NCBI GenBank assembly: GCA_050084515.1
Contig: CM114271.1
Coordinates: 25,420,001-25,484,000, forward strand
Direction: 5' to 3'
DNA from: Blasia pusilla
Lineage: Eukaryota
DNA: 64,000 nucleotides
The notes under the pieces were generated by a model that saw only the letters and a program-made list of their open reading frames with translations, made no database searches and was not told where the DNA came from. The stretch's first letter is position 1. Each line of letters starts with the position of its first letter. Both the position numbers and the translations under genes were made by a program. Positions 10,001-35,010 of this stretch are shown in pieces.

Positions 10001-11685
10001 TGACACTAGTCAGAGCTCAAGTTAGGTGTCAGAGGCATCTACAATAACTTTGTAGATCAAATAAGGTTACACATCCTATTCATAGATTCATAAATGAAGG
10101 TTTCCTTACAACACATCATGCATATATGATGACTATCCTTCAAGAATAAGAGCCGAGTTCTTTTGAAGAAGCTGCAAGTAAAGTTGAATGGATTGAAGCT
10201 ATGGTGGAAGAGCTTGCTGCATTAAGACATCAACAGACATGGGAGTTGGTTGATATACCTTCCGGTAAGGAAGAAATTGGTTGCAAATGGATTTACAAAA
10301 TCAAGCGCAATCAAGATGGTACAATTAACAGATACAAAGTGAGATTGGTGGCTAAGGGCTATGCACAACAATATGACATTGATTATAAGGAAACATTTAG
10401 CCCTCTTGCAAATATGGCAACTACGTACGAGAACAGTGGTTGCAGTTGTAGTAAGTAAGAAGTGGAGATTATATCAGATGGACGTCAAGAATGCCTTCTT
10501 GAATGGAGATCTATACAAAGAGGTATATATGACTCAAACATTTGGACATGACCATCCCAAGTTTCCATTTTGCGTATGCAGGTTGAAAGCTCTATACGGG
10601 CTCAAACAAGATTCAAGAGCTTGGTATGGCAAGATTACATGCGTCTTACAAGAGTTGGGTTTTAGGGTATGTGATTCTAACTCCTCGTTATATATCTTGA
10701 GAGGACAAGATCATACAATTATCATTGTGTTGTATGTTGAAAAACTTTTGATTACTAAGACTACTGAAAAAATGGTATAACAAGTCAAGCTAAAGTTACT
10801 AGGAAAATTTAACATGAAGGACTCGGGAGAACTCAAGTACTTCCTTGGTGTTGAATTTATCAAGATTAGAGAGAGCATGTGGTTATTACAACGATAATAT
10901 GCTCTTCAAATACTTTCAAAATATGGTATGACGACTTGTAAGCCAATCTCTACACCGTTGGACCAGAGTGTGAAGCTAAGAGTGGATGAAGGAGAGTTGC
11001 TTGCAGATTCTAATATGTACAGGCGTATGGTTGGAAGTTTGATTTATCTAACTATAACCAGGCTACATTTGAGCTATGTTGTTGGCCTCGTGAGCCAATT
11101 TATGCAAGCACCTTGAAAACCTCACCTTGATGCTACGAGGAGATTATGCGCTATGTGAAATTCTCCGTTCAATTCGGGTTTCAATTTGAACCTTCTTCAA
11201 GAACAAGGATTCATAAATGTTGATTGGGCAGGAAGCGTGTCTGATCGACACTCCACATTTAGTTATTCATTTATTTCGGGAAGCGCAGCTATAAGTTGGG
11301 CTTCAAAGAAGCAACTTACATTTGCTTTATCTTCAATAGAGGTTGAATACAAAGGAGCAACCAATGCAGCATGTGAGGCGGTGTGGCTTCATCGATTACT
11401 TGTTGAGATTGGTGTTAGTAACTTAAGACCTAGTGTAATATATCCAAACAATATTAGTAGCATCAACCTTGGTAATAACCCTATGTTTCATGCTCGTACA
11501 AAGCATGTTGAGGTGCACTATTATTTTATCAGAGAAAAAGTGCTTGCAGGAGAAATTGATCTTCTGTATATAGGTACAGATCAGCAGATTGCAGGCATCT
11601 TTAGAAAGGCATTGTCTAGAAATAAGTTTGAAATGTTTAGAAATGATTTAGGCATTAGAGATATTGATCTAAGCTTGAGGGAGAG

Positions 11686-11997
11686 TATTGAAGATTGACT
11701 TACAGTCAAGCTTATGAAACACATGAACTGCTTTATTTGGTACTCACACGAAGTAGGGAAGCTTAATCTTGGTTAGTCTGTTAAGCACGATTATCTTAAC
11801 TAGGGTTAGTTAATCACAGTCAGTCTAACTTGAGACTATGGTTGAGGTTAGGCTTAGGGTTTCTTGTAGATACCCTATATAATTGAGAAGGGGACCAGCC
11901 TCCTCTCATTCTCTTATTGCAAATTTCATTCTCCATGATGGTGTGTGAGTGTGACAGTCATTTTCCATCAATTATGCTTCTTTAGCAGTTTTCCACA
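11686..11997 (+). repeat. copia A 3' LTR (TA...CA)
   Basis: Direct repeat of 6723-7032; preceded by the PPT. Confidence 0.9.
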
Positions 11998-14775: not shown

Positions 14776-14913
14776 GGCTTCCCGTGAACTAAAAATCTAC
14801 TGTACTCTCTCCAAGCACAGTCCAACCAGGGTGCGGGGTCTATGGCTTCCCGTGGACTAAAAATCTACTGTACTCTCTCCAAGCACAGTCCAACCAGGGT
14901 GCGGGGTCTATGG
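14776..14913. repeat. Tandem duplication, 2 x 68 bp
   Basis: GGCTTCCCGTG(A/G)ACTAAAAATCTACTGTACTCTCTCCAAGCACAGTCCAACCAGGGTGCGGGGTCTAT occurs twice with one mismatch. Confidence 0.95.
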
Positions 14914-17309
14914 TCGCAAGGCTACGACAGGCACTACTTAATGAGTACAGTCTCTCTCTCTCATACCTGAATTTGTCCAGTTCGTCTCCTCCTTCGAGTT
15001 CTTCATTAGTTTGCTGAAAGAGGGCGTCGTCGTATAGAGTGAAGGATTTTCTGAAATGAAGTCATGTGTCTAGGTTCTTAGGCGTGTTATTTCCAGGTCG
15101 AATATTTTTATCTTTCATGATGAATTTGATCTCTCAATACTAATTTGAACATGCGTCGGCCATTCCGTTCGACATGCCTTCAAGTTGTAGTAAGTCTCGA
15201 TTTGGCTTCAGGTAGATATGAAATCCCTAGAGCTTCTATGTTTTCCAGTGGCTATCAGAGATGATGTGTGGAAGCGTCTGCATCCAAAACAGACTCCGTA
15301 GTACGAGCCTTGTTCGTTCTCTGACGAACTTACCTCGGAAGTGAGACGCTGCGAACTTTTCTGAGGTTATCAATGGTAGTAATCTGATAAAACCCGATCA
15401 AGCTTATGAATCTTTGTTTTGATGCTTGGATGGGTCGGGTTAGCTTAACTTCACTGCAGTTCTAGGGCTGGGTAATCCCGCTTTCAACCTCGAGCTCCAC
15501 TTCAATTTCCCCAATTTTATAGCCAGTTGGCAAGTTACGTCGAGTAGAGATTTTGCAGATGTCGATAGCTGAAAACGTTGATCAATATTTTATCTTAAGA
15601 GTGTCCAAATTCTTGCAATAGGTTTGAGGTATCCATAGGTTATTGGTAACTACAATTCGTGTTACAGTACTTCCAGATCTAGCTTCTCTTCGCCAATATC
15701 CTCATGAATGTCTCCTCTTTTTTCCCAGATGAATGAAGCACGAATCCTACTGCCTGTGAGAATTGAGGGATTTGCTCTGCTGGGATTAAACCCGGGTTCC
15801 CTGTCAATCAATACGGAAACTGCGGAGAGAAATTGATCTTAGAGGTTTAGAGAAATTCACCTGTTCGAAGGGAGCATCTAAATAGTGACATTCTAACAGT
15901 AGACCTCTCAAAAAATGGGCAGAGACATCTAAATATTGGCAAAGTAAGAATCATCGGCATGTTACGACAATTCATAGCACAGCTTCCGCAAAGGAACCAA
16001 TAGTTTTCACACTACCTAATATGGTATTGTGGGTGGTCGAGAAGGCTTCCAAATGTCACGGATAGGAAGCATGAGCATGTTTTCTGCAGTCTTGAGTTAT
16101 GTGGGACCCTAAACTTCTGGTTACATATGTGAAATTTCGTAGAACCTTATTCTCCAATTTTTTAGGGTCTTTTCTAGAATAGAATAAACTGTCTCGTCCC
16201 CTTGCGTGACACATGGTGATAAGCGAGGAAAGTATCAGATCCTTGCGAGAATTTATCCTATCCTTACAGTTGCAATTGACTCAAATGATCTCGTAGCGGA
16301 TTTGAGTTCAGCGAGTGATGACTGTAATTGCGTCAGGTCCGAAAGATCCTCACTTAATAGGAGTCTAGCAAACAATACATAAGCTTCCGATATGGGCTTT
16401 TCGAGCTCAGCCAGATCTGCTGATACTAAGAAAGCTTCGGTAGCCGATCAAAAGATTTGGGGAGTCTTATCGTGCAACCGTTGTGTTTGTCCTAGTGCAG
16501 TCACTCCGAGAATGCAGCTTCTCCTGTTGCAAGCGGTCCTCTTGTTTATCTGCGGGACATGGTTGACCACTAAGGGCACATTTTCGAACTGATTTGCAAG
16601 GTAGACATCTTCACCTGTTCAGCTTCAGATCGTCCAGCTGCCACGAAGGGCCCTTAGCACCAACTGCAAGATGGCACTAAAATTGCTGCACTCTTGCTTT
16701 GATGATGTTACACCGAAAAAAGAGTAGCAGTCTAGGTTTTGGGGTTTTCCTCCAGCTTTCTCTGCAGATTTGTGTGGACAGAGACGCTCTCTTTATAATC
16801 TCCATGGGTGGTTCTGGTGGGAGGATCGTTGTAGGGACTTCTGCATCTTTGTTTACTGCTACTTGAAGAACCGCGCCTGACCTTATTATAACGAAAAAAT
16901 CAACTTACTGAACTGTCAATTCTGAATTGGTTAGAGAATTGAACATGGGATGGTGAGACCTTCAGTAATCTTTGAACTGCAAGCACTGGTCACCTTCGAA
17001 TGAAGATGACTGTGAACTGATCTTCTTGTAGTATACTGCATAAACCCAGATCTACAACCGTGTACATTAAACTACGAGTGACTGGGATCACTAGTCGATT
17101 TTTCCTGAAGTCCTGTTTTCAAGTATGTGTAATCGCAGTACTCATCATGCAATCTGGTGTAAACCATCGTCATGTCATCGATTTGCCAAAATCTGACATG
17201 CAGATTCTGCTTCAAGTGCTCTGTGAAGCACGCTAGGTGCTTTGGGACGGGCAGGCGATCGTATATGTGACTTTTGGAAGATGCATCGCAGGTGATTGTA
17301 GGCTTGGAG

Positions 17310-18707
17310 ATGCACGCAGGAGAAGCAGTCATGGCTCGGAAGTTGCCACACTTGATCATGCGAGGGGGAACTTCGCGAGGGGTCTATATCCTGAAAGAGC
17401 ACCTGCCCATGCAGGACGACAACATCAGCAAAGTGCTGCTCGCTGCCATGGGGACTGTGTATGCGCATCCGGGGGAACACTTCCAACTCGACAGAGATAG
17501 GAAAGTCGGTGGCGGTTGCCAAGTGAATGGACTGGGCGGCGGAACTTCCATCACGAACAAGGTCGCCATTCTGTCCAGATCCGCATATAAGGGCGTGGAC
17601 GTGGACTACCGCTTCGCCCAGGTCAGCACTTCCAAAGCTTACGTAGACTTCGAGCCCAGCTGTGGCAACATTCTCGCCGGTGTGGGTCCCGCGGCGATCG
17701 AAATGGGCCTGGTGAGCAAACTGGGCAGGGAGGTCACCAAGGTGGTGATCCGAGCGACGAATAATGGCACCCTGGTGGAGGCCGTGGTGAGGACTCCCCA
17801 GCAGAAGCTGGCATACGACATAATAACGAGCGACCAGGTGGACGGCGACGGGGCACTCCGACATCAACCCGCTCCGGTGCTGCTGAATTTCATGGACGTG
17901 GTGGGATCCACGAGTGGAGGCCGGCTCCTGCCGACGAACAACGTCGTCGACGTCATCGACGGTGTGGAGGTCACCTGCATCGACGTGGCGATTCCCATGG
18001 TCATCGCCAGGGCGTCGTCCATGGGCAAGACCGGCTACGAGTGCAAGCAGGAGTATGACCATGACTGTCACTTCTTCGCGCGTCTGGAAGCCATTCGCCG
18101 GAAAGCTGGACTGCTCATGGGGCTGGGCGACGTCGCGGGTCGGGTTCTCCCCAAGTTTGGCCTCGTCGCGGAGCCCCGGTCTCCTGGCGCCAGCTTCACG
18201 GCGCGCTACTTCGTCCCCGATTCGTGCCACCCCGCGATGGCTGTCACCGGAGCCATCTGCATGAGCAGCTGCAGCATCCTCAAGGACTCGGTGGCGTACG
18301 ACCTCGCCCGGCGCTCGTCCGTGCCGGTCGATTCCTGCTGCCATCCCGGACTCACTCATGACGAGGTGGTCATCGAGCACCCGTCTGGATCCATCAAGGT
18401 CTTGCTCAAGTCTTTGCAGAAACCCGACACGCGGGAGATGCACGTGGTCAGCGCCGGGATCGAGAGAACTGCGCGTTGGATATCTGCAGGGGTCGCGTTC
18501 GTTCCGGATCATTGGGAGCGTGAGGAGCCGAGGGTGGACATCCACGCAACGATTTTAATGAGCACCGAAACAGTCATTCCTGAGGAGAAGGTGAACTACG
18601 AAATGAACGGGTGCGAAACCTCCAAAGCCGAAAGCTTGAGAAAGGAGATCGACTCCCAATTCCAACAATTCAGGCATATTTTCTCTTACGGTAGTAAAGT
18701 AGAGTAG
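17310..18707 (+). CDS. PrpF-family isomerase (4-oxalomesaconate tautomerase GalD/LigU-like, diaminopimelate-epimerase fold), single coding exon
   Basis: Uninterrupted ORF (first in-frame ATG 17310, alternative 17331) with family motifs MRGGTSRG, GLGGGTSITNKVAI, DVDYRFAQV, SCGNILAGVGPAAIE, PKFGLV, CHPAMAVTGA, IEHPSG and RTAR. Strong G/C bias at third codon positions. Confidence 0.9.
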   Translation: MHAGEAVMARKLPHLIMRGGTSRGVYILKEHLPMQDDNISKVLLAAMGTVYAHPGEHFQLDRDRKVGGGCQVNGLGGGTSITNKVAILSRSAYKGVDVDYRFAQVSTSKAYVDFEPSCGNILAGVGPAAIEMGLVSKLGREVTKVVIRATNNGTLVEAVVRTPQQKLAYDIITSDQVDGDGALRHQPAPVLLNFMDVVGSTSGGRLLPTNNVVDVIDGVEVTCIDVAIPMVIARASSMGKTGYECKQEYDHDCHFFARLEAIRRKAGLLMGLGDVAGRVLPKFGLVAEPRSPGASFTARYFVPDSCHPAMAVTGAICMSSCSILKDSVAYDLARRSSVPVDSCCHPGLTHDEVVIEHPSGSIKVLLKSLQKPDTREMHVVSAGIERTARWISAGVAFVPDHWEREEPRVDIHATILMSTETVIPEEKVNYEMNGCETSKAESLRKEIDSQFQQFRHIFSYGSKVE

Positions 18708-21700
18708 ACCACTCTCTTACGGGAATAGGTGTCATCCCTCTCTTACGGAAATAAGTGCCCTTACCCGCCTCTAGCCGACCGGGCAAACTCGCAGCGTCTA
18801 TACGACATACTCTCGTGATTGATGACTTTCTTAGTTAGTCCCGATACTCTCTCCGACCCACGTATCAAATACATATGTAGTGAAATGGTCTAAGGATCGG
18901 CCTAAGTATGTTTCCACACCAGATTCGTAGACTAAACTGGCCTCCAAACCTTTCCGAGGGCCCTTTGCTGGCGCGCTGTTGATGTACTTTTGCGATGTGC
19001 ATTCGTTGGTGATCCCGTGGCTATATGAGACTAGTAGAGGTCCTACGTGGAGCACGGAGTCAATAGCTCTGGTGCTCGGGAAACATTTTCTTATTGCCCT
19101 ACATTTGCAAAAGGACTCTTTGCAAACTAGAAAACTATCCTCCGATCCCTTTTAGCTTTGTTCGAGCATGGGTGTATTTCATCTCCCCTTCGAGGCTTAA
19201 AGTCGAATTAGTAAAGTTTAAAATAGAAGTAGAAAGGACCTCTGCCCCGGAAGTCTCTTTTAACCTGATGTTCATTACTATTTCTTTCTTTTAATTCTTG
19301 GCACTTCAGCTACTCCACAGCACAAGTGTCAACACGTCAAAGTTTTTTCCCCACCATGCATTGATTCCAAAAGTGTTTTAGGGACGATGGAGTGGTTAAT
19401 TAAGCGGTTTTTCGTTAACCCAAATCTTATCTGTGGAAGGTAACCCAAACAGCGCGCTGTACCCCAAACATTAGTCAATCAACACAAGGAACAAACATCA
19501 AACCCTTTGAGAGTGTCGTAGTGTTTGAAGGGAAGAGATGATTCGTCGGAGAAGAAGATGGGTAGATGTTAAGAATTTTACTTGTAACTATTTCCATTGT
19601 GATCCAATCTTTTCAATGTTAGGCCGAACGTGTTCATCTTTTCAAGCTTGAACTTTGGGGTTTTTTTTTTTACTTAAGATGGAGTTTTCCAAAGTTCTAG
19701 GGATTTTTGGACCTCCTTCTCTCCTAAACGACCTCATTGATTCTTAAACGCAATTTCACACATAGCGCTTTTCTTATAAAGTGATATCGGGTTACCATCG
19801 GTTTAAGGTATTCCTCTTGCTTTTCTCGATCTTTTGATACGGGCTAGGCTCAGCATTACGAACTCATTCCCTCATAGCAGTCATCAGTGGGTGGTTCACT
19901 TTCTCCTCACATCCTCTTTTTTGGTGTTTCCAATCTCTTTCATAACTTTCTTCTGGAATGTCGGTTTTGGACGTGTTTGGTCTTGTTTCGATTGTCTCAT
20001 GAGCTCGTTCTTATCATACCAAGTAGGTTTTCTAGTTTTTCTTTCTTATCCGTAAGCGCTTTTTATGGTATACGAGTTTGTTTTAGGTCAATTCCTCTCA
20101 AACTTCTTCCTTGCTCTTTCAACTCTTTACTTTACTATTTCCCCCCTACATGCATTTGCTATCTCCTTAGGACATTAGAAATTCATATTTTGATCCACTT
20201 CTTCCGATACCATATATATCACTGTTCCTTTTCAAAAAAAAATATACTTCTTAAAGTAATTTTCAATAATAAGTTCGTTATTTCCTAATCTTAATCTCTC
20301 CATCTAAATTTCTTTTATACGGAGTCCACTACTTTTGTTTTGTTTCATGCTTACTCCAAACCGCGTTTCATATGTCTTCCCTTGTCTCTGATGACTTGCC
20401 TACCTTTGCTTCTATGGCATTAGAGATGGAGCTGGATTCTCCATCTACTTGCTTCTTTGGTTTTACACGCCCTCCTACGACCATAACCTCTCCCCCTGGT
20501 TCACCTCCTCATCGTACATCTCACCATTTTCGTCCAAATACTAATACATCCATTACACTCTCTGCATTTCTTCTAGATTCTCCTCTTCTCCCCCGTTTGT
20601 CATGTCCTAATGAGCCTAATATTGATCCATTATTACCAAATCCTACAACTTTTCCAATCCTCACATATCTCATCTATGCCCTTACTTCCAACTCCCATCT
20701 ATTCTACCCTTATCTCCCCTCTTCCTCTTCCTCTTTCCCCAACCTACTTATCCCCTCATCGTCGTCCACCATCACTTCTTGCACCTCCCACCTCCTCTCC
20801 TTATAACTCTTCTACTTCTCCATTTGTACAAAAGGTTCGTTGCATACCTTGTGGTAAGGAGTTTGCTCCTAATGGGATCAAAAGACATGAGCGGTACTAT
20901 TGATCCATGCATGAGCCTTCAATCCCTAACCCGATACCTCCTCCTACTACGATCCCCACAATAACGGCTTGGACCTGGTTAAGCCAAATTGATCTCCTTC
21001 ACTCTTTCCATCCAGGTCTCCCTCGTCCTAGGCTCTACACTCGCATTTCTATTGCTCCTCATCCCATTATCCAACAAGCTTTGATTTTTCCATTAGAAAG
21101 GTTAGTTCATGATTCCACATATATAAATGCTTGGTATCTCCTATTACTCTTCCCACAATGGGTTTTAGTCCTCCCTCCAAGGGATTGTACGACGGATCAT
21201 TGTCAAACCTCCACACGTATTCAGCACTTTATGTCTAGGGATTGGGAGAATCATCAGAATGAGCATGTACTTCGAGCAGAGGCCTTAGCTGGGGCTCATC
21301 CCACTCAAAATGCTAATCATGGAGGCCTTCAATACAACAACGCCTTTAACGAAGTCTACTTTTGGGGCATGTTGGTGAGTTTTCACATGTGGCTTGAGCA
21401 TTGGATCCTCTCTCTCTGACGGTTCCAAGTGCGAACACAGTGGCTCTCTTAGAAGCTCTTCACCCTCCTTCAAGTGGTAATGCACCACCTTTTGTGGAAG
21501 ACTATACAACGGATCTTGACTTGGAGCTTGACTTGGAGGTTTTCACAAGGGCTTTTCTTCATACTCCATGCTTATCAGCAAGCGGGCTATCAGGGATGGT
21601 TTTTTAGCATCTCCACGATTACTGTATCCCGCCAGATTCAGTAAGTGGCTTTATCTCTCTATAGAAGGTGTGTGCACATATTGCGCCTGGTCGTCTCCCA

Positions 21701-22950
21701 TTCTCTATCTCTAGGCTCCTAGGGGCTTGGGGTTTGTTGGCTATGGATAAGACTCCTTTAGGTGTCTTCCATATGGCTATTGGAGAGGTTTTATACCGCT
21801 TGGTTAGTCGATCCTTATGCTTGCAATTTCGTCCTCACTTTAGTGCCCACTTATTTCCTCATTAATTTGGAGTGGCAACTCCTGATGGTTTTGAGGCTAT
21901 GGTGCATGGGATTCGCTCCACTTTTAATATTCATCCTGAATGGATAGCAATTCAAGTCGATGTGGCTAACACATTCAATTCACTTTCTCGTACGACCATC
22001 TTTGAGGAGTAATATTATGCAAGAGGAGTTACGTTATGCATGAGGACAACTTGCGAGTCTCATTCCATTTTTTTGCTCCTTCTATGCCTATGATACGCCC
22101 ATTATCTATTCTCATCATGCTACTTCCCGGGAATATAGTATTCTCCAATCGGCTTGTTGCACGTGTCAAGGTGATACCATGGATGGCCCGCTCTTTGCCA
22201 TTGCCCATTTTCGTGCCCTTTGAGTATCAACGCAAGCACTTCCATCTTGTCTTTTCCCTTCTATTGCTAATGACACTCACATTATAGGTCCTCCTTCTGA
22301 AGTGGTTCTTGCTTATACCCATTTCGTAGAGCAACTCTCTTTCTTAAACCGTAAAGTCCAACCTATTAAATGTGGAGTATGGTCTCCTTCATGCCTTCCC
22401 TCAACATTCATCCCGCCTACTCTTGAATTTCCTATCTACATTGAAGGGTTTAGGGTTCTTCAAGTCCCAATTGGCTTCATCGACTATGTCTCAAAGTTCT
22501 TGGATGAGATCCTTTTGAAAGACGTGGAATGGTCTAATTTTTTACCTCATCTAGGGGATCCCCAAGTGGCTTATGGGATTCTCTCCCAATATTTTACGAC
22601 ATCCTTCCTACCTTCTTCGAACTTGTCCTGTCACATCTGAGTAGTCGATAGGCCAAGATCTATCGTGGATAGGGCGTAGGAGCCAACGGACTATCTTGAG
22701 TGTAACTTTGTCCCACGGTGTCATATAAGGTTGAGGATAGGTCTATTGTGCCAGGAACGTCGTTTCTGACAACTTTCATGTTGAGGTCTTTCACAGCCCG
22801 GTGACTTGTTGACCAGGTCACCCGCCCCTGGTAACGTGTGCGCGCAGGTTATCAAGGAGAGGGCTATTTTTAGGGGAAGAGCCTTTTGGCTCTTTCCAAC
22901 CCTATATAAGAGAGGAAGGTGGCTTTCCTAGGCCATCTTTCCTCAGCCAT

Positions 22951-23810
22951 CAGTACCTTTATGTGGAGAGAGATGAGACCGCGCGGCGAGTATCATTACG
23001 TTACGTGGCGAGATTGGTCTAGAGGTATCTTGAGTTGTTGCCGATATCTGTAGTACGGGGATATCAACATACACTACCTGCCGACATCTCTTTGGTGGGG
23101 GCGCAGGATCTGGATAGAGTTTGCACCATTCATTTGGTGATTCTTGGATGGTCATGTCAGGGTCATTCATCAGCTAGCCGAGGATTTGGATTGCAGGATC
23201 CGAGGTCAGGGATGTTTTGGGAGATGCTGCGAGTAGTACGACACTTGCAGGAGAGTCAGACATGTTCTCCAACGTACATTTTGGAGAACGTGCCATTGTT
23301 GGGAGACACTCGTGCACGTGTGATGACGAGTGTGCATCAGGTGAGGTCCTGGTTGGGACCTGCTGTATTGCTAAATGCGGCGAGAGTTGGATCACGTGCC
23401 CATCGTCCACGACTGTGGTGGACAAACCTGATACCATCAGAGGTACTAAGTCGAGCATATGATGGAGTCCAAAGAGCACCACATCTCATAGTGGATGCTA
23501 TTTTGGGCTCACGGCGTCAATCTCAGGTGGTGACACGGGATGATAGACCACCGTTGGCCATGGCCAATAGGATGGGGGAGTTGAGGGCAGCCTTACCTAC
23601 GTTGGTGAGCTTCCCAAAATCCGATGCCTTTCATCAGGGAGGGCCAAGCATGATTTGGGATGAGGTGACCGGAGCATTGGAGGAGCCTACAGCAGATGAG
23701 CGCTAGTGCGCCATGGGGTTCGCTACCGGTACTACGGCGGTGCCAGGGATGACTGAGGCATCCCGGAGACAGTTGTTGGGGATGGACCTCAATTGTCTCA
23801 CATGGATAGT
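22951..23810 (+). pseudogene. C5-cytosine DNA methyltransferase catalytic domain (DNMT3-like), retrotransposon-encoded, lacking motif I
   Basis: One frame: motif II YLYVERDETARRV; III DI; IV LVILGWSCQGHS (PC->SC); V GLQDPRSGMFWE; VI YILENV; VIII NAARVGSRAHRPRLWWTNL (cf. DNMT3A DAKEVSAAHRARYFWGNL); IX/X EPTADER*CAMGFATGTT...SRRQLLGMDL (cf. DNMT3A EMERVFGFPVHYT...ARQRLLG). Two in-frame TAG stops. Confidence 0.9.
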
Positions 23811-24129
23811 TAGCCTAGGTATGGCTGAGCATAGACGGATGCGAGTGTCATCCATGCCATCACGTCCACGAGTTGGACCATTGCCTACAGGGTCTGTTCA
23901 CGCATTGGCTGGGGGCGAGACGAGGAGAGATAGGCACTCATGGACTTCCTGGGACGTCGTTCGAGCGTAGAGTGGGAAGGCGGCTAGAGTAGCACATGTT
24001 CATTTTTCGGATGTGGAGCATGGTGTAGGAGGTCAGAGTGGAGTGGCTCTTGCGGAGGTGGCTAGGGTTGCTACATAGCAACCAAAGCCGGAGGTTGTGT
24101 CCTCTCCGAGTGAGGTCACGATGGAGACT

Positions 24130-27043
24130 TGGGAGCCTGTGATAGGTCTCAAGTTGATAGGAGGAGAGCGACGGCGAGTTCATAGGTTTCTGAGAGGGCA
24201 TGTCACTTGTTTTGCCTTCAATATGAGAGACTTGGGCACGCTGAAGGGTCCCGGGATACGGATTGAGTTGGCTAGTGATACAACGATCTTTCATCGACCT
24301 TGCAGGTATTCTGATATGGAGCAAGCCTTGATTCAGAGCAGGAGTTAGGACTTGTTGGAGGCAGGACTTGTAGAGTTATCACATGGGGAGTATGCATATG
24401 CCACAGTCATGCCGGCGAAGAAGGATATGTATGGCAATTGGACGGATAGGCGGATGTGTGGAGATTACCGTCCTATCAACCGACATACGAGGTCAGATCG
24501 GTACGCCATGCCTATTCTTGAGGAGATCTTTGATGCGGTAGGGCATGCAAAGAGCTTCAGTACTTTAGATCTTCGTGTTGGCTATCATCAGCTTCCTATC
24601 AGGTTGGTGGATAGGGAGAAGACAACATTCTGGGGATAGATCAGTTCGGGAGAGATTGCTTGTATCAGTGGAGGTTCTTACCATTTGGGTTGAAGAACGC
24701 GCCTGCAGAGTTTCAGAGAGTGATGGATAGGATTCTAGCTGGCTTGGATTTTGTATGATGTTACATAGATGATATTCTTATCTTCAGTTCCATGGTTGAG
24801 GAGCATGAACGACACTTGGAAGAGGTGTTTCAGCGATTGCAATTACATGGACTGAAGTAACATCCACGCAAGTGCAGATTCTTTCAAGAGCAGATTGAGT
24901 ACTTGGGACACACCATATACCCGAGTAGGTTAGACGTTCAGCGGACGAAGGTAGAGGCTATTGCGCAGATTCCACGCCCTACAGATGTGAGTCGAGTCCG
25001 AGCATTTCTTGGACTGGCAAACTTCTATCGACGGTATGTCAAGGGTTTTAGTGCGATCGAAAAGTATTTGACCTTGTTGACGAGACTTGATCAGGTTTGG
25101 TTGTGGGGAGATGATCAAGAGCGAGCATTTCAGAAGCTCAAGGAAAAATTGACGTCCTCACCCATTTTACAGAGATCGGTTAGGGGTCGCCCATTCCAGT
25201 TACATACGGATTGGAGCATGTTGGGTCTAGGAACAGTGCTTACTCAGAGGGATGATAAGGAGAGGGAGTTCATTGTGGCTTACGCGAGCCGTTCAAACAA
25301 CATTGCAGAGGCAAAGTACAGCTCCTATGAGGGAGAATGCTTGGCTGCAGTGTGGGCCGTGGCACATTTTAGGTGCTATTTATTCGGAAACCCTTTCACA
25401 CTTATCACTGATCATCAGCCGTTGAGGTGGTTGATGGAGTCCGACAAGCTTATAGGAAAGCTTGCCAGGTGGGCTCTATTACTATAGGAGTATGAGTTTG
25501 AGGTGGTTCATAGGCCTGGTCGGCTGAACCAGGATGCAGATGGATTGAGTCGTAACCCATGTCCGAGTCAGAGAGACGACACAGGAGCTTGATGGCACGG
25601 AGAGAGTGATGAGGAGATGGTGCTCGGTTGGCATGCATCTGCCTATCTTTGTTGGTTGACTATGGCAGGTCAGCCACAGGTGATGATTCTAGTGGTGGGG
25701 TTGGATGATGAGTCTTTGGATCCAAAGGTCAGTGTGGTCGTGATATCCATGACGACGTGGAGGTTGTGGAGTTCTTGCGCACTGGCGTCATAGCGAGCAC
25801 AGTGAGTGCTAGGGAGCGGGATCGGATCCTACATAGAGCCAGAAGGTTCATGTGGGAGGGGACTCACATTTTGCGGGTATGGGGAGATGGTAGGATATGA
25901 GTGGTACCTCATCCTTCCCAGAGAGCACGTGTAGTGCGACATGCCCATGAGGAGTTGGGACATTTTGGAGTAAAGCGTACTTATAGCTTATTCCAGGTTC
26001 AGTATTGGTGGCGCGGCATGCATACTGGGGTACAGTAGTTTGTGGCCAGATGTATGGTATGTGACAGGATGCGAGCATCCTTCAATCCTCCCACTCCGCA
26101 GTTACTTCCTTTGCCGATTATGGGTTTAGGTTATCGGTGGAGTTTAGACTTTGCGGGACCTTTGCCATTGACGGGGCGTCATCATAGGTATGTTTTGGTC
26201 ATGGTGGAGCATTTCTCCAAGTGGATAGAGTTTGTGGCACTACCGGACAAGGCGAGCGAGGAAACAGCTTATGCATTTCTAGATCGTGTGCTTAGTCACT
26301 TTGGTGCACCGACGGAGGTGTTGACTGACTAGGGTACTGAGGTCAGGGGAGAGTTTTCAGGCCTTGTGTGATCAGGCGCTGATAGATCACCGCACCACGT
26401 CTAGAGATCATCCTGAGGCGGATGGGTTGGCGGAGAGAGTGGTATAGACGGTGAAGAGAGGATTGCGCAAGTATGGCTTGTGCAGGGACACTTGAGGGAG
26501 TGGGACCTACAGTTGCCATGGTTGGCTATGGGTTATCGCTTTAGTCGGCACGCATCCTTGGCGTCATTTTCACCGTACTTTTTGCTCTTTGGGAGAGAGC
26601 CACATTTACCTGGAGCGATTTGACATGACATGGCAGAGGTGTTAGATCTTGATGATCCAGATGTGTGGATACAAGCATGTTCTCAGAGGGTGGAGGTTTT
26701 TCGTAGAGTTATGCCTATGGCCTTTGAGAACTTAGCTATTGCTCAGCATAGAGATACATTGAGGTACGCGACCATTCGTGGAGGAGGTTATCGTCCAAGG
26801 ATTAGGAGGTTTCATCCTGGAGATTACGTGTATTTACAGCAGGCGACACCCACGACGCTAGATCTCACTACAGGGCGCACGATCCTACGTGTGCGCGAGG
26901 TATTACCGATCAGAGTCCTCATGTTGGAGGGACGGGATGGTATGGTTTGGAAGGATCATGTGCGCAATTGTGCGCCATGTCATCTTTCGAACGTAGACGG
27001 GACGGTGGATCCGAGCTTGGCAGTGGTACCTGCAGGCTTAAGG
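24130..27043 (+). pseudogene. Ty3/gypsy pol: RT, RNase H, integrase
   Basis: RT: RMCGDYRPIN, FSTLDLRVGYHQ, LPFGLKNAPAEFQR, CYIDDILIFS. RNase H: LHTDWS, YEGECLAAVWAV, TDHQPL. Integrase: HEELGHFG...CMVC, WSLDFAGP, VEHFSKW, LTD*G. A few frameshifts and stops. Confidence 0.95.
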
Positions 27044-27192
27044 TGTATGTTGTGCGGATCTGTGAGGGGTGCAACCATCATGTTGGTATGTGATGGTTGT
27101 TCTCGAGGGTGGCATATGTCATGTCTGACCCTTCCCCCCCCCCTCTTGATGTGGTTCCCACGGGATGATGGATGTGTCCGAGATGTGTATAG
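27044..27192 (+). pseudogene. PHD finger (C4HC3) at the integrase C-terminus
   Basis: CMLC...MLVCDGCSRGWHMSCLT, then, after a slip in the poly-C run at ~27134-27144, PLDVVPTG*WMCPRCV-stop. All eight Zn ligands and the conserved W are present. Confidence 0.9.
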
Positions 27193-27698
27193 GGTAGTAG
27201 GTCATGTTAGAGAGATATGATATTTTCTATCTGGAGTTGGGAGGATCCAACTGCCAGCTAGGGGGATGGTTGTGTGATCTCCATGTATATGTATGAGTTG
27301 ATTTTTGTACATGTGTGGATCAACCTGTGTGTGGGGAAGATCAGTGTTGTGTGGTGTAGATGTGACCAGCGATATATGTTGTGTAGCGATATGTATGCGC
27401 ACGATAGTCCTTCCACTTCAAGGTTCTTATATCGGTTGGCATCTTTTGACGCTTCTATCTTGGAAAATTTTGGTCAACTTCTTGGCCCGAATAAATTTGA
27501 GGGGGAGGGTGGTATCTTGGCTTCACAACAAACTATCTTGCCTATTTCTTTTAAAGGGGTGGGACTTTCCTCCACAATCACAACTGCTCTTGTAGCCTTT
27601 TTGGAGAGTTGGACGTTGGTAGCACCGATTATGGCTTCAAGGTTTCTCCAAGGAGATACACCTATCTTGATGGATCATGTCGCCCATGTGAAGGAGGG

Positions 27699-28216
27699 TA
27701 TCGCATCTTAGTTTGACGTAGGTAGAGTTCTATCGCGTCGACAGTATAGAGAGTCGGCGGGCTATTTGGATGTAACTTCATCGTGAGATGTCACATGAGG
27801 TTGGCGACAAGTCTGTTGCGTCAGGAACATCATTAATGGAAATTTTCCTATTATGGTTTTAGTCTGTCACCTGACTCGTTGACCGGGTCAATGGTCAATT
27901 GGTAACTTGTGCACTCTTATATCCTTGGGAGAGAGAGAGAGATGGCTTTTCTCAAGCCATCTTTCTCATGTTGAGCCTCAAGAGCGCCTCTCTTGCATAG
28001 ACGTATGTGGGTGTGTAGGAGTTATGGTACTAGCGTCCGAATTCCCTCCTAGCGGAGGGTGGATGGGATTTTATATGCCAATTTAGATTCATGAATGGAG
28101 TTTTAGAGATGTATATGTATGAGTTTGTTTGGTTTATGGATGGATCGACCAGTGTGTTGGGAAGATCAGTGTTGTGTGGTGTGTAGATATGACCAGCGAT
28201 GTGTGTGCGCACGACA
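27699..28216 (+). mobile_element. Solo LTR (or internal-deletion derivative) related to the DNMT-gypsy element
   Basis: TATCGCATC...GCGCACGACA with 4-bp TSD AGGG. The first ~270 nt align with 22629-22945; the last ~110 nt align with 27283-27406. Confidence 0.85.
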
Positions 28217-31200
28217 AGGGGGACGTCTTATTTCAACAACAACTTAGATCTGCCCGAGCTCTTCTTCCTCTTACTACACAAGCAATTCTACTGCCTTTTA
28301 GTCAATTGATTACTAAAGGGCTTGATCGACTTCAAGAGCATATCTCTGAGAACTTGCACCAAGTCATCTTTTCCATCATTCTTTCTTAGGCATCCTCTGA
28401 CTCTCATCAAGCTCTTTTGCGTTCATGTGCAGGAGCCTGGCTTACTGCAAATCCTCTTACTCTTCCATTTCGTCTTCCTCGAAGTATATTCTGGATAGCT
28501 TTGTGGTAAAGCCTTGGATTTCCCCATCCTTCTCTATTAGATGTGCAGAATTTTGTATGCGGGAATCCCATTGTTACCAAGGGTATCCATATTCTCTGAT
28601 TTGCAGAAGGTGGGGAACGAATAGCCACACATGACGTCATTAGAGAGGCGGTAGCATCAGTGGCTCGTACTGCAAGATACACCATTAGGCAAGAGCAGAT
28701 CCATGTTCTATCTTCAACCACACAAGCAACCTCTCGTCGAAGAGTTGTTCTTGTTATGTCTTGAGGTGGATTTCGGACACTAGATGATATGGTGGTTGCT
28801 GATCCAACTCGTTATGACTTGGTGTGTTGAGTTGCACATACCAAAGGTTCGTCGATTGAAGTTGCAACAAGAATCAAGGAGTTAAGTTATATTGTAAGAC
28901 ATGCGACTAATGGATTTATTCCTTTTGCAATGGCAGTATTTGGTCATTTACATGTGTCTTTTGATACTTTCCTGAAAATATGTGCTCACCACTCCCTCAA
29001 GAATCATCACCTTGCCCCTTCCACAAAACCTAAGCACTCTTCACACACCTCTGCACGACATATCAATGCCAAGGCACATACCACACAACCAAGTCTATCT
29101 CGCAGACCTTTTTGACCATTTGTCGGCAACGCATCCACTCATCTGGGGATACAAGGACAAAATATAGTAAGGTGTTGGCTTGTATGTAGGTGTTGGAGAT
29201 TTCTTCAACTTTTGATTGTATCGTTTCATATATATGAGTTATGACGTCGATGCATCACATGACCTACAAATCTTACTACTATTGTATAAAACCTTTAACC
29301 TAGTTGAAATGTTGCAACAAGATCTATAACTCGTATAATGAAGCTGTAAGGAATGGTAAAAAACTCAAAAGTCTGTTCCTAATAACTTGAGTGGCGCCAA
29401 GACCAAGGTACTTTTGTTGGCAGTTTAGGCTATATGAGATTTTTGTGTGAAGAGTGCCTAGGATCTAGTCTTTGGCCTAAGCCAGTCAGTTAAACAAAGG
29501 TCAAGTTGAGGATGCACATATTTATGACTTCTCAAAGGTGTCTTCGTGAGAAGTCTCGTGGCTGTTCGGGAAAACTATATTAGAAATTCTCATAACTTTG
29601 TAACGGGAGATTGGTAATCAATCTATGAGGCCTTGGGTTTCAATGGGAAACACATAATTATGGCGTTTCATTTCGAGGTCTAACCTCTTCACCTAAAATC
29701 TTTTCCATCATGCATATTTATTGAGGTTCATCATTTCTATTTTAAAATTAGGATGGAAGATTTATGAGACTTAATATTGTCCACTTGACGCTCAGGCATC
29801 TCATAATTGACACACATCAAGATTGATTCAAGGCGAAGCAATCGGGCGGGATCGAGTAGATTACCAACGCGTTGGGAGAAAGTGCGGCTCGAGATAGGAT
29901 CAGGATCACCAATGGTGGATGGAGAAGATCCGGGGTTGCCAATAATCGTAGCCGATTGAAATTAGAAATTTCCCTTTCACTTAAAATTGATCGGGAAAAA
30001 ACTAGCAAGATCTTCTTTTTCAACTCTCATCTTGAGATCCCCTCTTTAGTCAACTCAAAGCACTCATCATAAGTGAAGTGCTTAAAATATCCTAAAATAC
30101 AAACAACAATTAATATCAAAAAACCTCTTATGTCCATCTAACGCTTGGATGTTGGGTTAAACACTCTCTTCTTGACTCTGGCATTTACTTCTCATGTCTT
30201 ACCTCCCTTATGATCATGCCTTCACTTCTTTGTGTACCTAGAGACCACGATTTTGTCTCTTCATCGAGCCTAGCATAATTGAGATAGCGTAAAGTGAGCA
30301 AGGTTTTCAGTATATGAAGACTCGCCTTAAATACCTCCAATATATTGAGACACCCTAGGCCTTGAACACTTCACTGACCATCTCTCAAAGGCATTTTTGG
30401 GCTTAGTTTCTCTAACGTAAGGCTTTGAAGTTTGCACATGTGCCCACCTTTCCTGTGCTCAGAGGAGCGTGGGCATTTTCTATTGAAGACTGAGTTAGAG
30501 TCAAGCTCCTCGGACATCCAAATTTTTATATTTAGTACTCACACGAAGTAGGGAAGCTTAATCTTGGTTAATCATTTAAACGTGATTATCTTAACTATGG
30601 TTAATTAATCACAGTTAGTTTAACTCAAGACTCTGGTTAGGATTAGGGTTACGGTTGCTTCTACATACCCTGCATAATTGAGAAAAGGACCAACCTCCTC
30701 TTATTCTCTTATTGTAAAATTTTGTTTTCCATGATGGTATGTGAGTGTGAGTCATTTCCCACCAGTTATGCTTCTTTAGCAATTTTCTGCATGATATCAG
30801 AGCGACAGGAGAACATCACTTGAAATTCTTCATATTTGAGGAGAGAAGGGAGGAAAGAGAAGGCACAATTTCAACTTGGGAGGAGGAAATCTTATTTAGA
30901 GCCCAATGGCAGAAGATTTCAGGTAGAGTTGTGACGATGATAAAACTTTGGAGGCATTTTTTAGGGATTTATCGATTGGATTAGAAATCTAGATACGTGG
31001 TTTCAATTAACTTGTAGGGCTCGTTGAGAGCTTTCTGACACGTCCAAAATCGCTTGATTGTGACATTGTGAGCTCTTGCAGCAATAATTTAAGTGCAGGA
31101 AAGTGCAATTAGTGAATGAAAGTTATGGAGTTTGCTCTCTATAGGCCAATTTTGACTAGTTCTTCCATAGAGTTGATCAATTTGGAAATTTTTTGGTCAA

Positions 31201-32378
31201 TTTCTATTTAAGAGTGGTCTATGCTTCAATTAGAGCAATGGAGAGCCTAAAATTATATTTTTGTGAGTAAAATTATTCTTCATGGAATATTCTTCAATAA
31301 TAATCAAAAGCGAGATCCTATACAAGCAGAACTACAACGTGTGGAAGTTTCGAATGAAAAAATTTCTCATGGTTCAAAAACTATGGGAGCTTGTTATAGA
31401 TGATGGCGCCAAGCCAAAAGGTAACTCAATAAACTTGAATGTTCACGCTTGAAACAAACGCGCAAGGCAAGTAATCCACTATATTTCAATAACGATCAGT
31501 TCGCCAATGATAGGTCATATTCAAGATGTTGATATTCTGTAGGAGGCGTGGGATGCATTGGAAAAGTTGTTCCAAACATCTACAAAGGCCAGAAAGCTTC
31601 AATTGAAACAAAAATTAAACGAACTGATAAAAGAATGGCAAAGTATCAATGAAAATGTTTTGAGTATCAAACATATTGCTGATTAGTTGAATAGCATTGA
31701 AGTGATAGTAGAAGATGATGATCTAATTTTCTTCACTCTTCAAGTCCTTCCAAAGAACTACAAATTTTTTAAGACCTTTATATGTGTGAGAGAGAAGTAT
31801 CCAACCTTTCAAGAATAAGTCCCGCTATTAATCAGTGAGGAGATACGCCTAGTAGGGAGTAGTAGCTCATCTAGTATGCAAAAGAATCATTTTCCCCTCC
31901 TTTCTATCTTTTTTTTCTTTATTCATGCAATAGACTTTATTTCCTTTCTTTTTTATTCTTATTTCCTTTTAACTCTACAACCTAGTGAAAACCAAAGTAC
32001 ATGAATTGAAATTAAATAGCATCAACCCTTAATTTCTTTACAATATGGATAAAATTATATAATATGTACAACCCATGTTCATGGGAGGGTTTTCACATTC
32101 CACCATACATGATTCAAGATATATGGGAAAATATTTATCTTGATCCTATATTACATATGTAGATACTCTTGTGCCAAGTGTCCAAAATCCATTTTTGGCC
32201 ACGGAACATTTGTGAAATGATAAACTTAAGCAATGTTTGGTTATAGAAAAGCCATCACAATCCTTATATGGTCCTTATGAAAAGTAATGGTTGAAAACAA
32301 TCATGATCAAATTGCACAACAAGCAACTTTATGAATGTTAGGTTTTTCAAGTCATCACTATTCCATTTATATCACTAA

Positions 32379-32593
32379 CTAGTTAGTGCCTATGACGGAC
32401 CGTGCCATGGAGGGTCCCATGCATATACGCCCCCTCTCGTGCGTATATGCCCTCTTGTGAATACGCGCCTTGCCCCATGCTTATACGCCTCTACCTAAAA
32501 TATGCATAGGATTTCTAGGAACACGTGTCACATTCTGCAAGTGTCGTCATGTCAAAACCATAGTATAGACCACTCCGCAAATTATAGTATAGA
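32379..32593 (-). mobile_element. 215-bp non-autonomous mini-Helitron
   Basis: On the minus strand begins A|TCTATACTATAAT and ends with an imperfect GGACC...GGTCC hairpin (32397-32417) then CTAG|T. Confidence 0.6.
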
Positions 32594-32779
32594 TGTATAT
32601 TGTAAGAGTTATTCCACCTTATAAGTATATTTTAATATTTATGATGAGAATAACTAAAACAACAAGTGGGCAAGCATGATATCATAGCAAAGGTAAAATC
32701 GATGATTATGACTGCAGCTTGCGTATCGTATGTATCATAGTAATAGTAGATTAGTTTGGAAATAACACGCGGCTCTCTC

Positions 32780-33900
32780 AACACACATTCTCATCTTCAA
32801 TCCTGCTAAGTTTTCCTCATCTAAGTTTTCCCATAATTATCTTTGATTGAGCATAAATTTATGTAAGATGATACAATGTTGAAACAAGTTGACCAATTGT
32901 TGATTATGTTATTCTTCAACTAATTGCAAGTCTCCTTAAGTGAATACCATTTTGAATTGAGGATGCTAATACAACACTCAAGTAAATGTTATCTTTATCT
33001 ATATCACGAGAGGCCATCCTAAATGTGGGAATCAAGCTTGGGAGGGATGAGTATATGTTACTCTCAATTATGTACGGAACTTCATCTTAGGTACCCAAAA
33101 ACACTCCTTTTTCTCCACAACTTAGATCGCTTCAACCAAAATTTCTCTTGAACAGATCCACATGTATCTCTCATTGAGCCAAACGTCAAAACTTTGTATG
33201 AAACTTTAGTGTAGTAAGGAAATAACATCTTAAAGACTAGCCAAAATTTGTGGAAAAAAATGATTGTTCTTTGATAATTCCAAACCACTTTTGCATTTAC
33301 GCAATAACCACTTTTTTTTATCGTACTATGTTTCCTCGAAATGTCGTAGCCTTTAACTAAAGGGGAAGAGGATACCATCAATTAAGCCATATATCCTATA
33401 AAACCCAATGATGAAATTTGGAAGAAATCCTAGTGCGCTTGACTCAATCTTGACACTTGACTTGGTTGGCCAATCTGTCTATAAATGCAATTAAGAAAAA
33501 GTGAGTGAAATTGACCATAGACGCACCTTAGATATTCCATGAGAACACAGAATGTGCTAAAAAAAATGCCATTCCCACGATATCCCACTCAATCAAGTGC
33601 AATAGCGAACTAGACAACCAACAACACTTGCAATTTCTTTATGCTTGCAAGGAAGATGGGGTGGTCTTTGATAATGTAGACCAACTCATAGAAGGGAGGG
33701 AGTTTCATGCATGTTAATCATTGAAATAAGGTGGAGGGCAGGTTGAAGAATAAATTTATGACAAAGTTGAAGCAACCACGCTTAAGCCTTGACCATATAT
33801 GTATTATTGTGCACCAACATGTATTTATGGTACATGTTAGTATCACTATCCTCATCACACTTAAAATTAGTCGAATTTGAGGACCCCATATATATGGAAG
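32780..33900 (-). pseudogene. Degenerate PIF/Harbinger (DDE_Tnp_4 / HARBI1-like) transposase
   Basis: Minus-strand fragments in the expected order: GLIDGILFP (IDGT motif, ~33390), KKSGYCVNAKVVWNYQRTI, LECCISILNSKWYSLK (VERAFGxLKxRW motif, ~32960) and CIILHKF (CCILHN motif, ~32865). Limits approximate. Confidence 0.6.
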
Positions 33901-35010
33901 AGCAAGAAGTGTCCAAAAGGGTATCCATCGTATCATCTAATCTTAAGGTCCAGAGATGAGATCTTTTGTCCTTGTTATGATTGTGATTGAGAATCCTCCG
34001 AAGACGATTTGGGGCCACTTTTATCATCCCAAAGAAACTCAAATTTAAGAAGGAAAACTACATCCCCTGTATTTTTCTCTCTCGGACAACCAAAGCATGA
34101 TTTTCAAACTTAGTGCCCTTGATGCATATTTTCCTTGATCTTTATAGCAAGTAGATATATAAATGAGAGCCATAAGATTGGTAACAGAAGAAGCATTAAG
34201 TACCTAACATGTTAAACACGAGGAAAAAAAGCCAATTTTGTGAAGGTTAATCTTTGAACAAGACGCGTACAAGTTTAACTATCTCTCATCCTGAACTTAT
34301 ATTGGTACAAACTTTTAGCCGGAATATTTGATTATAATAAAAATGTTAAAAATGTTAATTGCAACATGACTAACTTCAACATGAGACTAAAATCACTTCT
34401 ATATCATCGTAAGACAAAAAGAGTTGGCCCTCATGTTCCTTGCTTACATTTATATGAAGATTGTGCAATTAAATATTTGAACATGACTAACTCGGCCTGA
34501 AGACTAAAATGACACACGAAATGCAACATGTGATACCTAAAAGATAGGCATATCCAATCCAATTGATAGGAGATGTGTGGAAAAAATTTAGAAAACCAAA
34601 AAAATAAACTTAATAAAGAGTCTATATGGACACATAGCAATTAGCAGATCCTCCAACACAATTACTTTCAATTAGTATTGAATTTTTTTTTAATCCATGG
34701 GAATGTGAACCAACCTTGGAAAGTTGTCGCAACCCTCATATCCAAACAAGCGCCAATTCAAAACATCAAAACTCTAAACTCTAGTAAGCTCACGCTAGGA
34801 TGGAAGAGCATCGGAGAATTCTCTTGAATGAGACATGACATATGAGACGCAAGCAAGGTTAGGCGTTTCATGTGATGAGGGTCATGACCCAATAAACTAA
34901 GAACCAATGCGAAATAAGACTTGAGAGGAGCTCAAGTTCCATGAGAGTTTATTGCCAAGAGAATTTGGAACTTGATTAGTGTTTGAGGATTTTGCGGTGT
35001 TTATGGTCAT

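Follow-up and report, generated by a model that had tools for sequence, protein, structure and literature searches.

A degenerate Ty3/gypsy insertion with a DNMT3-like methyltransferase remnant in Blasia pusilla and its probable place in the streptophyte Gypsy-DNMT3 group

Analysis of a 64,000-nucleotide stretch of DNA from Blasia pusilla (contig CM114271.1; the whole stretch is called the window below, and positions are counted from its first letter) revealed that the interval 22629-27406 on the + strand is very probably a dead, internally deleted insertion of a Ty3/gypsy retrotransposon from the streptophyte Gypsy-DNMT3 group, in an otherwise liverwort subclade, whose family has the domain order gag, protease (PR), cytosine methyltransferase (DNMT), reverse transcriptase (RT), RNase H (RH), integrase (INT) and PHD finger. 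The original prediction, made from the DNA letters, had proposed a gypsy element with its own DNMT3-like enzyme fused in frame to RT, and most of its claims are borne out by the profile searches, homologues, trees and sequencing reads reported here. The window copy itself is non-functional, owing to deletion, C-to-T-type decay, stop codons and frameshifts. The features of the insertion are as follows.

22625-22628, no strand: left target-site duplication GTCC, the same 4 bp as 27407-27410
22629-22945, + strand: 5' terminal repeat A1, beginning TGTCAC, with its 3' side cut short
22946-22953, + strand: deletion junction between repeat A1 and DNMT motif II; homology to relatives starts at 22952-22954
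22954-23823, + strand: remnant of a C5 cytosine methyltransferase, motifs II to X, putatively of DNMT3 type (Pfam PF00145, homologues and motif alignments)
23824-24165, + strand: DNMT-RT linker that continues the DNMT frame and is broken by TAG at 23968 and 24076; no Pfam family matched
24166-24636, + strand: N-terminal part of RT, still in the frame of the DNMT and with TAG at 24346 and 24637, placed by tblastn to relatives
24648-25562, + strand: remaining RT and RH in a second frame, with stops at 24756, 24858 and 25485
25718-27220, + strand: INT and C-terminal PHD finger in a third frame, which is broken by seven internal stops and closed by TGA at 27218
27254-27265, + strand: polypurine-tract-like CCAGCTAGGGGG, adjoining B1 upstream; the identical word stands before B1 of the related locus L056
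27283-27406, + strand: 3' terminal repeat B1, ending CGATA (B2 ends CGACA)
27407-27410, no strand: right target-site duplication GTCC, paired with the left copy

Methyltransferase and Polyprotein Remnants

The methyltransferase was recognized by the Pfam profile PF00145 (DNA_methylase), the check that the original prediction had called for, with a score of 27.6 bits where the curated cut-off is 22 (E = 2.5e-6; residues 21-130 of the open reading frame (ORF) 23023-23706), and the profile scored 22.2 bits in a long read-through translation. All the predicted C5-methyltransferase motifs could be seen in the one-frame translation of 22951-24640: the motif II region YLYVERDE (22954-22977), motif IV GWSCQGHS (23146-23169), motif VI ILENV (23278-23292), motif VIII SRAHRPRLWWTN (23392-23427), in which RxR is present, and motifs IX-X CAMGF...RRQLLGMD...LTWIV (23707-23811), motif X being short by two residues. 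TAG stops at 23020 and 23704 interrupt the domain, and an open frame for the enzyme is absent.

Motif I (FxGxG, which binds S-adenosylmethionine) is absent from the window copy, as predicted: homology to relatives begins only at 22952-22954, and repeat A1 lies upstream. (Numbers with P denote proteins of the family and numbers with L related metagenome loci.) The motif has the form (E/D)(L/P)FGG in 161 relatives and is also found in P0132, P0351 and L002; in P0132 and L002 it reads DLFGGISTGL and stands directly upstream of the point where the homology of the window starts. EEPFGSF, offered as a relic of motif I by a domain alignment, was rejected because it sits within repeat A1, which aligns to a second repeat, A2. 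Since the deletion fuses A1 to DNMT motif II, motif I, gag, protease and the rest of the repeat have been lost, and neither gag nor an aspartic protease was found in the window element by Pfam or by tblastn with relatives.

In motif IV the catalytic cysteine is retained and the preceding proline is replaced by serine (codon TCA). This change had been predicted and is real; its value as a sign of inactivation is small, because glutamate occupies the position in 118 of 191 family members (proline in 60, serine in 5; the cysteine is invariant in an alignment of 202 DNMT domains). The closest relatives of the window DNMT carry PC there. To our knowledge, glutamate in place of proline before this cysteine (G-W-E-C-Q) is unusual among C5 methyltransferases.

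A three-frame read-through of 19000-28500, with X at stops, was scanned with Pfam and gave PF00145, RVT_1, RT_RNaseH/RT_RNaseH_2, Integrase_H2C2, rve and PHD in this order on the + strand, so that the Pol order of gypsy elements (RT, RH and an integrase of H2C2 plus rve) is present. The ORFs starting at 23035, 23713, 24097 and 24352 are all in the frame of 22951, and the frame shared by DNMT and the N-terminal part of RT is broken by six stops, all TAG (23020, 23704, 23968, 24076, 24346 and 24637); the predicted in-frame fusion interrupted by TAG alone holds for this part of RT. Here the RVT_1 match is weak (16.7 bits, under its cut-off), and tblastn aligned residues 1330-1486 of P0135 at 41%, while residues 77-647 of P0292 span 22951-24636. 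Over 24648-25562, RVT_1 scored 83.8 bits and RT_RNaseH 110.4 bits, and residues 1486-1789 of P0135 aligned at 51%. The third frame holds Integrase_H2C2 (about 25913-26077, 53.4 bits), rve (about 26132-26344, 38.6 bits) and a PHD finger (about 27044-27136, 26.5 bits against a cut-off of 24) that resembles the PHD fingers of DPF2, KAT6A and KDM5. There are at least two frameshifts, one near 24637-24660 and one between 25590 and 25718, and the internal stops in the pol frames total 16 (six, three and seven), in keeping with the earlier verdict that the copy is dead.

The observed/expected ratio of CpG is 0.69 in the element, with an excess of TpG/CpA, compared with 1.0 in a nearby PrpF-like gene (17271-18707, see below), which fits methylation-driven decay of the window copy. 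Fungal repeat-induced point mutation was also considered as the source of the TAG stops and the AT-rich flanks, and was dropped because the PrpF and DNMT matches are bryophyte.

Insertion Boundaries and the Surrounding Repeat

Two further features belong to the surroundings of the insertion.

27699-28216, + strand: separate A2...B2 unit of 518 bp, solo-repeat-like, with AGGG at 27695-27698 and 28217-28220
19255-22624, 27411-27694 and 28221-29176, + strand: surrounding repeat F, decayed and multi-copy, host to both insertions

An ordinary pair of long terminal repeats (LTRs) was not found for the element by repeat finding or blastn, and the A and B repeats surfaced only in a more sensitive self-comparison. 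In this comparison A1 (core 22631-22841) pairs with A2 at 27701-27912, extended to 27975, at about 66-76% identity, and B1 (27283-27379) pairs with B2 (28109-28206) at 84-88%. A TATA-like CTATATAAG at 22902-22910 in A1 may be a promoter element, and CCAGCTAGGGGG probably functions as a polypurine tract. The order in the window is A1-coding-B1-A2-B2, and 292 bp lie between B1 and A2 (27407-27698), 283 bp of them being repeat F. The A-internal-B unit and the A-B unit, each flanked by a duplication of its own, were inserted separately into the same copy of repeat F.

Contigs of two DNA runs (X1 and X3) and raw reads of two RNA runs from the same organism were mapped on 17000-30500 at a likeness of at least 82%. 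The joint 22624 to 27407, which corresponds to repeat F free of the insert, was found in 1 DNA contig and in 5 and 7 RNA reads, and together with GTCC on both sides it agrees with the element flanked by target-site duplications that had been predicted. The joint 27689 to 28217, which is repeat F without the A2-B2 unit, was found in three X1 contigs. Joints running from B to A were also detected (27404 to 22628 at depth 134, and 27402 to 27704). Behind 22941, 35 X1 contigs diverge from the window and continue like A2, and many contigs start matching at 27269. The clean order A-coding-B-A-B was seen outside the window, B and A being separated by 7 nt in L056 and by 3-11 nt in the read joints. 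The word AACTTGTCC stands before the 5' repeat both in the window and in L056.

These joints bear on an alternative in which the DNMT belongs to repeat F, as the C-terminal domain of its RT-like ORF. Repeat F does lie directly upstream on the same strand, and it contains RT-like motifs of non-LTR type together with a C2H2-like CxxC...HxxxH stretch near 20850; these motifs and a weak RVT_1 lead in the Atlas (36% of one cluster, rank 9) hint at a non-LTR type. However, the GTCC duplication and the insert-free joints put the DNMT in the insert, the peptides of F are unmatched in 68 DNMT-bearing metagenome loci, none of which holds a relative of the repeat, and the homologues hold the DNMT within a gypsy Pol. 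The alternative is hardly conceivable on these data. Pfam was silent on repeat F, and no poly(A) was seen at its 3' end.

Kinship with DNMT3

Searched alone against the PDB, the window DNMT gave no significant match (best real methylase M.HaeIII, E = 0.44). A profile from 17 family domains matched 57 distinct PDB sequences at E <= 0.01, and the first 29 rows were all DNMT3A/B/C (E = 9e-22 to 9e-17), followed by DRM (5e-12 to 9e-11), M.HhaI (about 4e-10) and then DNMT2. The lower score of DRM is partly due to its rearranged motif order, since the order in the window family is not circularly rearranged: it is I-II-IV-VI-VIII-IX-X in the relatives and II to X in the window, collinear with DNMT3A. 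An AlphaFold2 model was built for the environmental relative P0351 (60.6% identity with the window across 246 residues) from 60 aligned members (predicted local distance difference test, pLDDT, 88; predicted template modelling score 0.89). A model from an 8-row alignment reached a pLDDT of 40.4 and was set aside. In Foldseek, every listed match of the P0351 model down to rank 50 was DNMT3A/B/C (E = 3e-13 to 9e-12, template modelling score on the target <= 0.74). The family profile and the predicted fold of this relative support the assignment of the window domain to the DNMT3 type, in line with the likeness noted in the original prediction. Host DNMT3A/3B/3C resemble the window family in catalytic fold and motif order; unlike them, the family has no PWWP or ADD, is embedded in a retrotransposon polyprotein and has mostly EC in motif IV.

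Homologues and Two Domain Architectures

A phmmer search of the DNMT stretch against 1.84 billion representative proteins obtained 1329 matches at E <= 1e-3 and 140 at E <= 1e-30 (best 3.4e-74, 64% identity), many of them gypsy polyproteins; the top-ranking matches with a named source come from Calypogeia and Marchantia. The 234 family proteins that were retrieved were sorted by domain order. Type A, with the DNMT upstream of RT or downstream of the protease, comprised 22 proteins, including P0318, which was later re-labelled type B; type B, with the DNMT between RH and INT and usually a PHD finger after the integrase, comprised 110 (111 with P0318). The remainder were 101 DNMT-only fragments and 1 protein without DNMT.

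Full type A proteins in one ORF are P0135 and P0274, in which Pfam found zf-CCHC, Asp protease, DNMT, RVT_1, RNase H and integrase, and a single ORF also joins DNMT and RT in P0292 and P0302. The window is collinear with P0135/P0274 over residues 1037 to 2235, and with P0292 from DNMT to integrase (RT-RH 59.6% identical). Named members of type A or its clade come from Klebsormidium nitens (GAQ93235.1), Closterium strains, Spirogloea muscicola, Marchantia polymorpha (two proteins) and Calypogeia fissa. The K. nitens protein (P0207) has zf-CCHC, Asp protease and DNMT and matched the window DNMT with E = 5e-34 and 37% identity. The signatures G-W-(E/P)-C-Q and AHRxRxxWTN run through the family. 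These homologues support the view that the DNMT belongs natively to the Pol of a Ty3/gypsy element.

Type B polyproteins were recognized by Pfam in P0134, P0140, P0143, P0146 and P0156. Proteins with the order RT-RH-DNMT-INT-PHD are nearly all metagenomic and include one from the chlorophyte Chromochloris zofingiensis. No published description of this order was found in the literature searched.

Phylogeny and the Question of Independent Capture

A FastTree phylogeny was computed for 202 DNMT domains, rooted with four unnamed stand-alone DNMTs, and an RT-RH tree for 77 rows. A quick IQ-TREE analysis (LG+C20) covered 62 rows, namely all of the type A group, 16 of type B and 4 outgroups, with 140 of the 202 omitted. 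The A/B label changes once among 127 labelled rows of the DNMT tree and once among 75 of the RT-RH tree (branch support 99). In the IQ-TREE analysis of the DNMT, the window is one of 7 members of a clade, beside Calypogeia, the two Marchantia sequences and three fragments of environmental origin, which scores 100 in the Shimodaira-Hasegawa-like approximate likelihood ratio test (SH-aLRT). The FastTree phylogeny of the DNMT places the C. zofingiensis protein in the type B group. On the RT-RH tree, the window RT pairs with a second fragment in the window (5747-6562, - strand) and then with P0292, inside type A. The concordance of the DNMT and RT trees contradicts a recent chimera.

Could the elements of the liverwort-containing clade have recruited a host DNMT3 convergently, in a capture separate from that of the Klebsormidium, Closterium and chlorophyte elements? 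Repeated independent captures are documented by de Mendoza et al. (2018; PMC5890265), the group that joins the window with K. nitens P0207 has an SH-aLRT of 86, which is moderate, and the tree does not include host DNMT3. Against this, the order gag-PR-DNMT is common to K. nitens P0207, Closterium P0159/P0302 and the loci of the liverwort-containing clade; the RT-RH of all elements with DNMT before RT lies on one side of the branch with support 99; and the two family signatures are shared, as is the arrangement A-coding-B-A-B described for KnitGypsy-Dnmt3 in the main text of the same paper. We therefore regard independent capture as improbable, and a common Gypsy-DNMT3 ancestry as the better account.

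Copies in the Organism and in Related Loci

Summed contig depth in X1 was 3-8 over the single-copy PrpF region and reached thousands across 19255-29176, with a jump at 19255 and a fall at 29177. In X3, the bins across 22863-24215, which hold the DNMT and the DNMT-RT linker, had depths of 4879, 2937 and 3278, compared with 4502-7052 for RT-INT and 147-1181 for repeat F. Five positions in the DNMT were each covered by 22-34 contigs of X3 and 3-63 of X1. Depth does not equal copy number, but the DNMT clearly belongs to a repeat with many copies. RNA reads map in the sense orientation, with mates as for the + strand PrpF gene.

Using P0125, 68 related metagenome loci were found, which fall in the clade of the window and have 68-72% nucleotide identity to it; a search with P0351 gave 103 pattern matches and no relative. 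The nucleotide homology of the window to the 68 loci extends from 22952 to 27179. Where the flank is long enough, the DNMT is followed by RT within 1.5 kb in 23 of 36 loci and by a PHD finger in 14 of 22, and it is preceded by a protease-like stretch in 28 of 38. L056 has a CCHC knuckle, DSGA, DNMT, RT, integrase and PHD between A1 (5736-6063) and B1-A2-B2 (14133-14701).

The original prediction named as its alternative a one-off chimera of a host gene fragment and a gypsy pol, and held that copies of the family without the DNMT would speak for it. In such a chimera, a piece of a host DNMT3-like gene or pseudogene would abut a 5'-truncated gypsy pol in frame. The window copy does lack gag, protease and motif I, and its DNMT starts abruptly at 22946-22953. 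Yet the junction lies upstream of the DNMT and not between DNMT and RT, single ORFs of P0135, P0274, P0292 and P0302 hold both domains, the two are adjacent in the 23 of 36 loci just mentioned, and the DNMT and RT trees show the same partition. The DNMT is moreover present in other copies of the organism, where dozens of distinct contigs cover it, as well as in the 68 loci. A chimera is accordingly very improbable indeed, and the DNMT is best read as an inherited component of the gypsy family.

Stretches with motif I and PC occur in the related loci: 4 of 27 near-full DNMT stretches have a single stop, with motifs I, IV (PC), VI and VIII intact. Between window and loci, the median ratio of nonsynonymous to synonymous substitution rates (dN/dS) was 0.135 for DNMT (n = 34), 0.116 for RT/RH (2), 0.084 for INT (13) and 0.085 for the PHD region (5); these comparisons are saturated at synonymous sites (dS about 1.6-2.8), and only the direction of dN/dS was used.

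Known Methyltransferase-Bearing Elements

The kind of element is already known, and what is new is the land-plant host group. KnitGypsy-Dnmt3 of Klebsormidium nitens and the DIRS and LINE elements of Symbiodinium that bear a DNMT were reported by de Mendoza et al. (2018; PMC5890265), in agreement with the original prediction. Protein GAQ93235.1 is probably a copy of KnitGypsy-Dnmt3. Like the window family, KnitGypsy-Dnmt3 has an intronless DNMT3-type domain in the Pol ORF and a gypsy domain composition, and its repeats have the order A-coding-B-A-B, called DIRS-like in the legend of Fig. 4c (PMC5890265), the same order as in L056. The window family differs in its land-plant host, in its separate, liverwort-containing subclade and in the PHD finger after the integrase. 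Copies are few in K. nitens according to the main text of that paper and numerous in the organism studied here, and the same text gives a Ka/Ks (the equivalent of dN/dS) below 0.2 for the K. nitens element DNMT, whereas in the clade of the window the DNMT is less constrained than RT.

In SymbioDIRS-Dnmt3, DNMT3 and RT share one Pol ORF, and the enzyme methylates CG de novo in yeast; direct methylating activity is established there only for Symbiodinium DIRS enzymes (main text of PMC5890265). SymbioDIRS-Dnmt3, with its tyrosine recombinase, and SymbioLINE-Dnmt, with the DNMT in ORF1, are of other classes, live in another host kingdom and represent independent captures (main text of PMC5890265). 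A passage of a 2026 preprint names 'streptophytes (Gypsy-DNMT3)' among the cases described earlier, and a passage of a 2025 paper cites de Mendoza et al. (2018). No paper on land-plant Gypsy-DNMT3 copies was found in the literature searched; the main text of PMC5890265 contains neither Marchantia nor Physcomitrella, and its supplements might differ. Chromoviruses, which are also Ty3/gypsy elements, carry a chromodomain after the integrase, where the window family has a PHD finger; both are domains of the histone-reader type.

Evidence Against a Functional Land-Plant Family

Several observations weigh against the placement and the function proposed here. The element ends in unlike repeats, A1 at the 5' side and B1 at the 3' side, and not in ordinary LTRs. 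The trees contain no host DNMT3 or DRM sequences, and the DNMT tree gives the type A and type B groups moderate support (SH-aLRT 86 and 85, FastTree 84-92). The Calypogeia and Marchantia proteins are fragments of 258, 406 and 227 aa. The land-plant clade yielded no intact copy: the longest + strand ORF of the 68 loci is 545 aa, and each of the 27 near-full DNMT stretches contains at least one stop. RNA depth is 6-14 over the DNMT bins and 27-92 over RT-INT, and 2018 of 3372 and 2299 of 4285 RNA reads are less than 90% identical to the window, so that the RNA comes from relatives and not from the window copy. For the K. nitens enzyme, the main text of PMC5890265 calls DNA methylation in the yeast assay inconclusive.

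Selection points in the same direction. Among the loci, dN/dS was 0.64 for DNMT and 0.35 for RT-RH (the same 13 loci, dS 0.05-1), and the DNMT value exceeded that of RT-RH in 62 of 62 pairs, which are non-independent. The DNMT was conserved across the deep split, but within the clade it has recently been under clearly weaker constraint than RT; it may therefore be dispensable or on its way out, and there are hints that it is not required for retrotransposition.

Other Features of the Window

A second decayed fragment of the same gypsy lineage lies at 5249-6701 on the - strand and comprises RT-RH and the start of the integrase, with 73% nucleotide and 67% protein identity to the main copy and no DNMT beside it. 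It ends at 6701, adjoining a copia-like LTR element at 6721-11998. This element and another at 30479-42625, both on the + strand, are copia-like (RVT_2, gag_pre-integrs, Pol_BBD) and related to each other, and their LTRs measure about 310 bp; the one at 30479-42625, the longer of the two, appears to contain extra inserted sequence. The LTRs are placed as follows.

6721-7033 and 11684-11998, + strand: LTRs of the first copia-like element
30479-30786 and 42316-42625, + strand: LTRs of the second copia-like element

An intronless PrpF / 4-oxalomesaconate tautomerase-like gene is located at 17271-18707 on the + strand (PF04303, 257.9 bits) and is transcribed. Its best matches are from Calypogeia fissa (56%), Marchantia (52% and 45%) and Ceratodon (48%), followed by hundreds of bacteria (46-53%), and from these matches it looks like an old bacterial acquisition common to bryophytes. 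Behind 18562, an additional 12 letters are present in 34 of 41 and 86 of 101 RNA reads of this gene, which indicates an assembly or strain difference. Short tandem duplications are present at 14776-14911 (2 x 68 bp) and 58838-59055 (3 x 72-74 bp).

Implications

In active ancestors of the window copy, the DNMT would have been made as a part of Pol and carried along with RT and integrase. Its presumed role is de novo methylation of DNA, the likeliest target being the cDNA or the fresh insertion of the element itself; this hypothesis, also voiced in the original prediction, comes from the main text of PMC5890265, where the Discussion argues for such self-methylation in elements that make cDNA before integration. 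The PHD finger may steer integration by reading histone tails, by analogy with the chromodomains of chromoviruses.

Cytosine methylation is the main weapon of the host against transposons, and a transposon that carries a methyltransferase therefore inverts the usual picture. We know of few transposon lineages described with a de novo methyltransferase of their own. The window element and its relatives extend the range of Gypsy-DNMT3 elements from the alga Klebsormidium to land plants, in a liverwort-containing clade, and to Zygnematophyceae (Closterium and Spirogloea). The family offers a tractable setting for asking whether retrotransposition needs the DNMT, and what A-coding-B-A-B means in an element with a DDE integrase. 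A wider reading would have Gypsy-DNMT3 inherited from streptophyte algae, high in copy number and transcribed in this organism with some copies of DNMT-RT-integrase-PHD still intact, and spread across Viridiplantae in two architectures, PR-DNMT-RT in streptophytes and RT-RH-DNMT-INT-PHD in a set that includes a chlorophyte; we consider it rather doubtful. If it is true, a retrotransposon-encoded de novo methyltransferase acts in the nucleus of a land plant and could shape its methylome.

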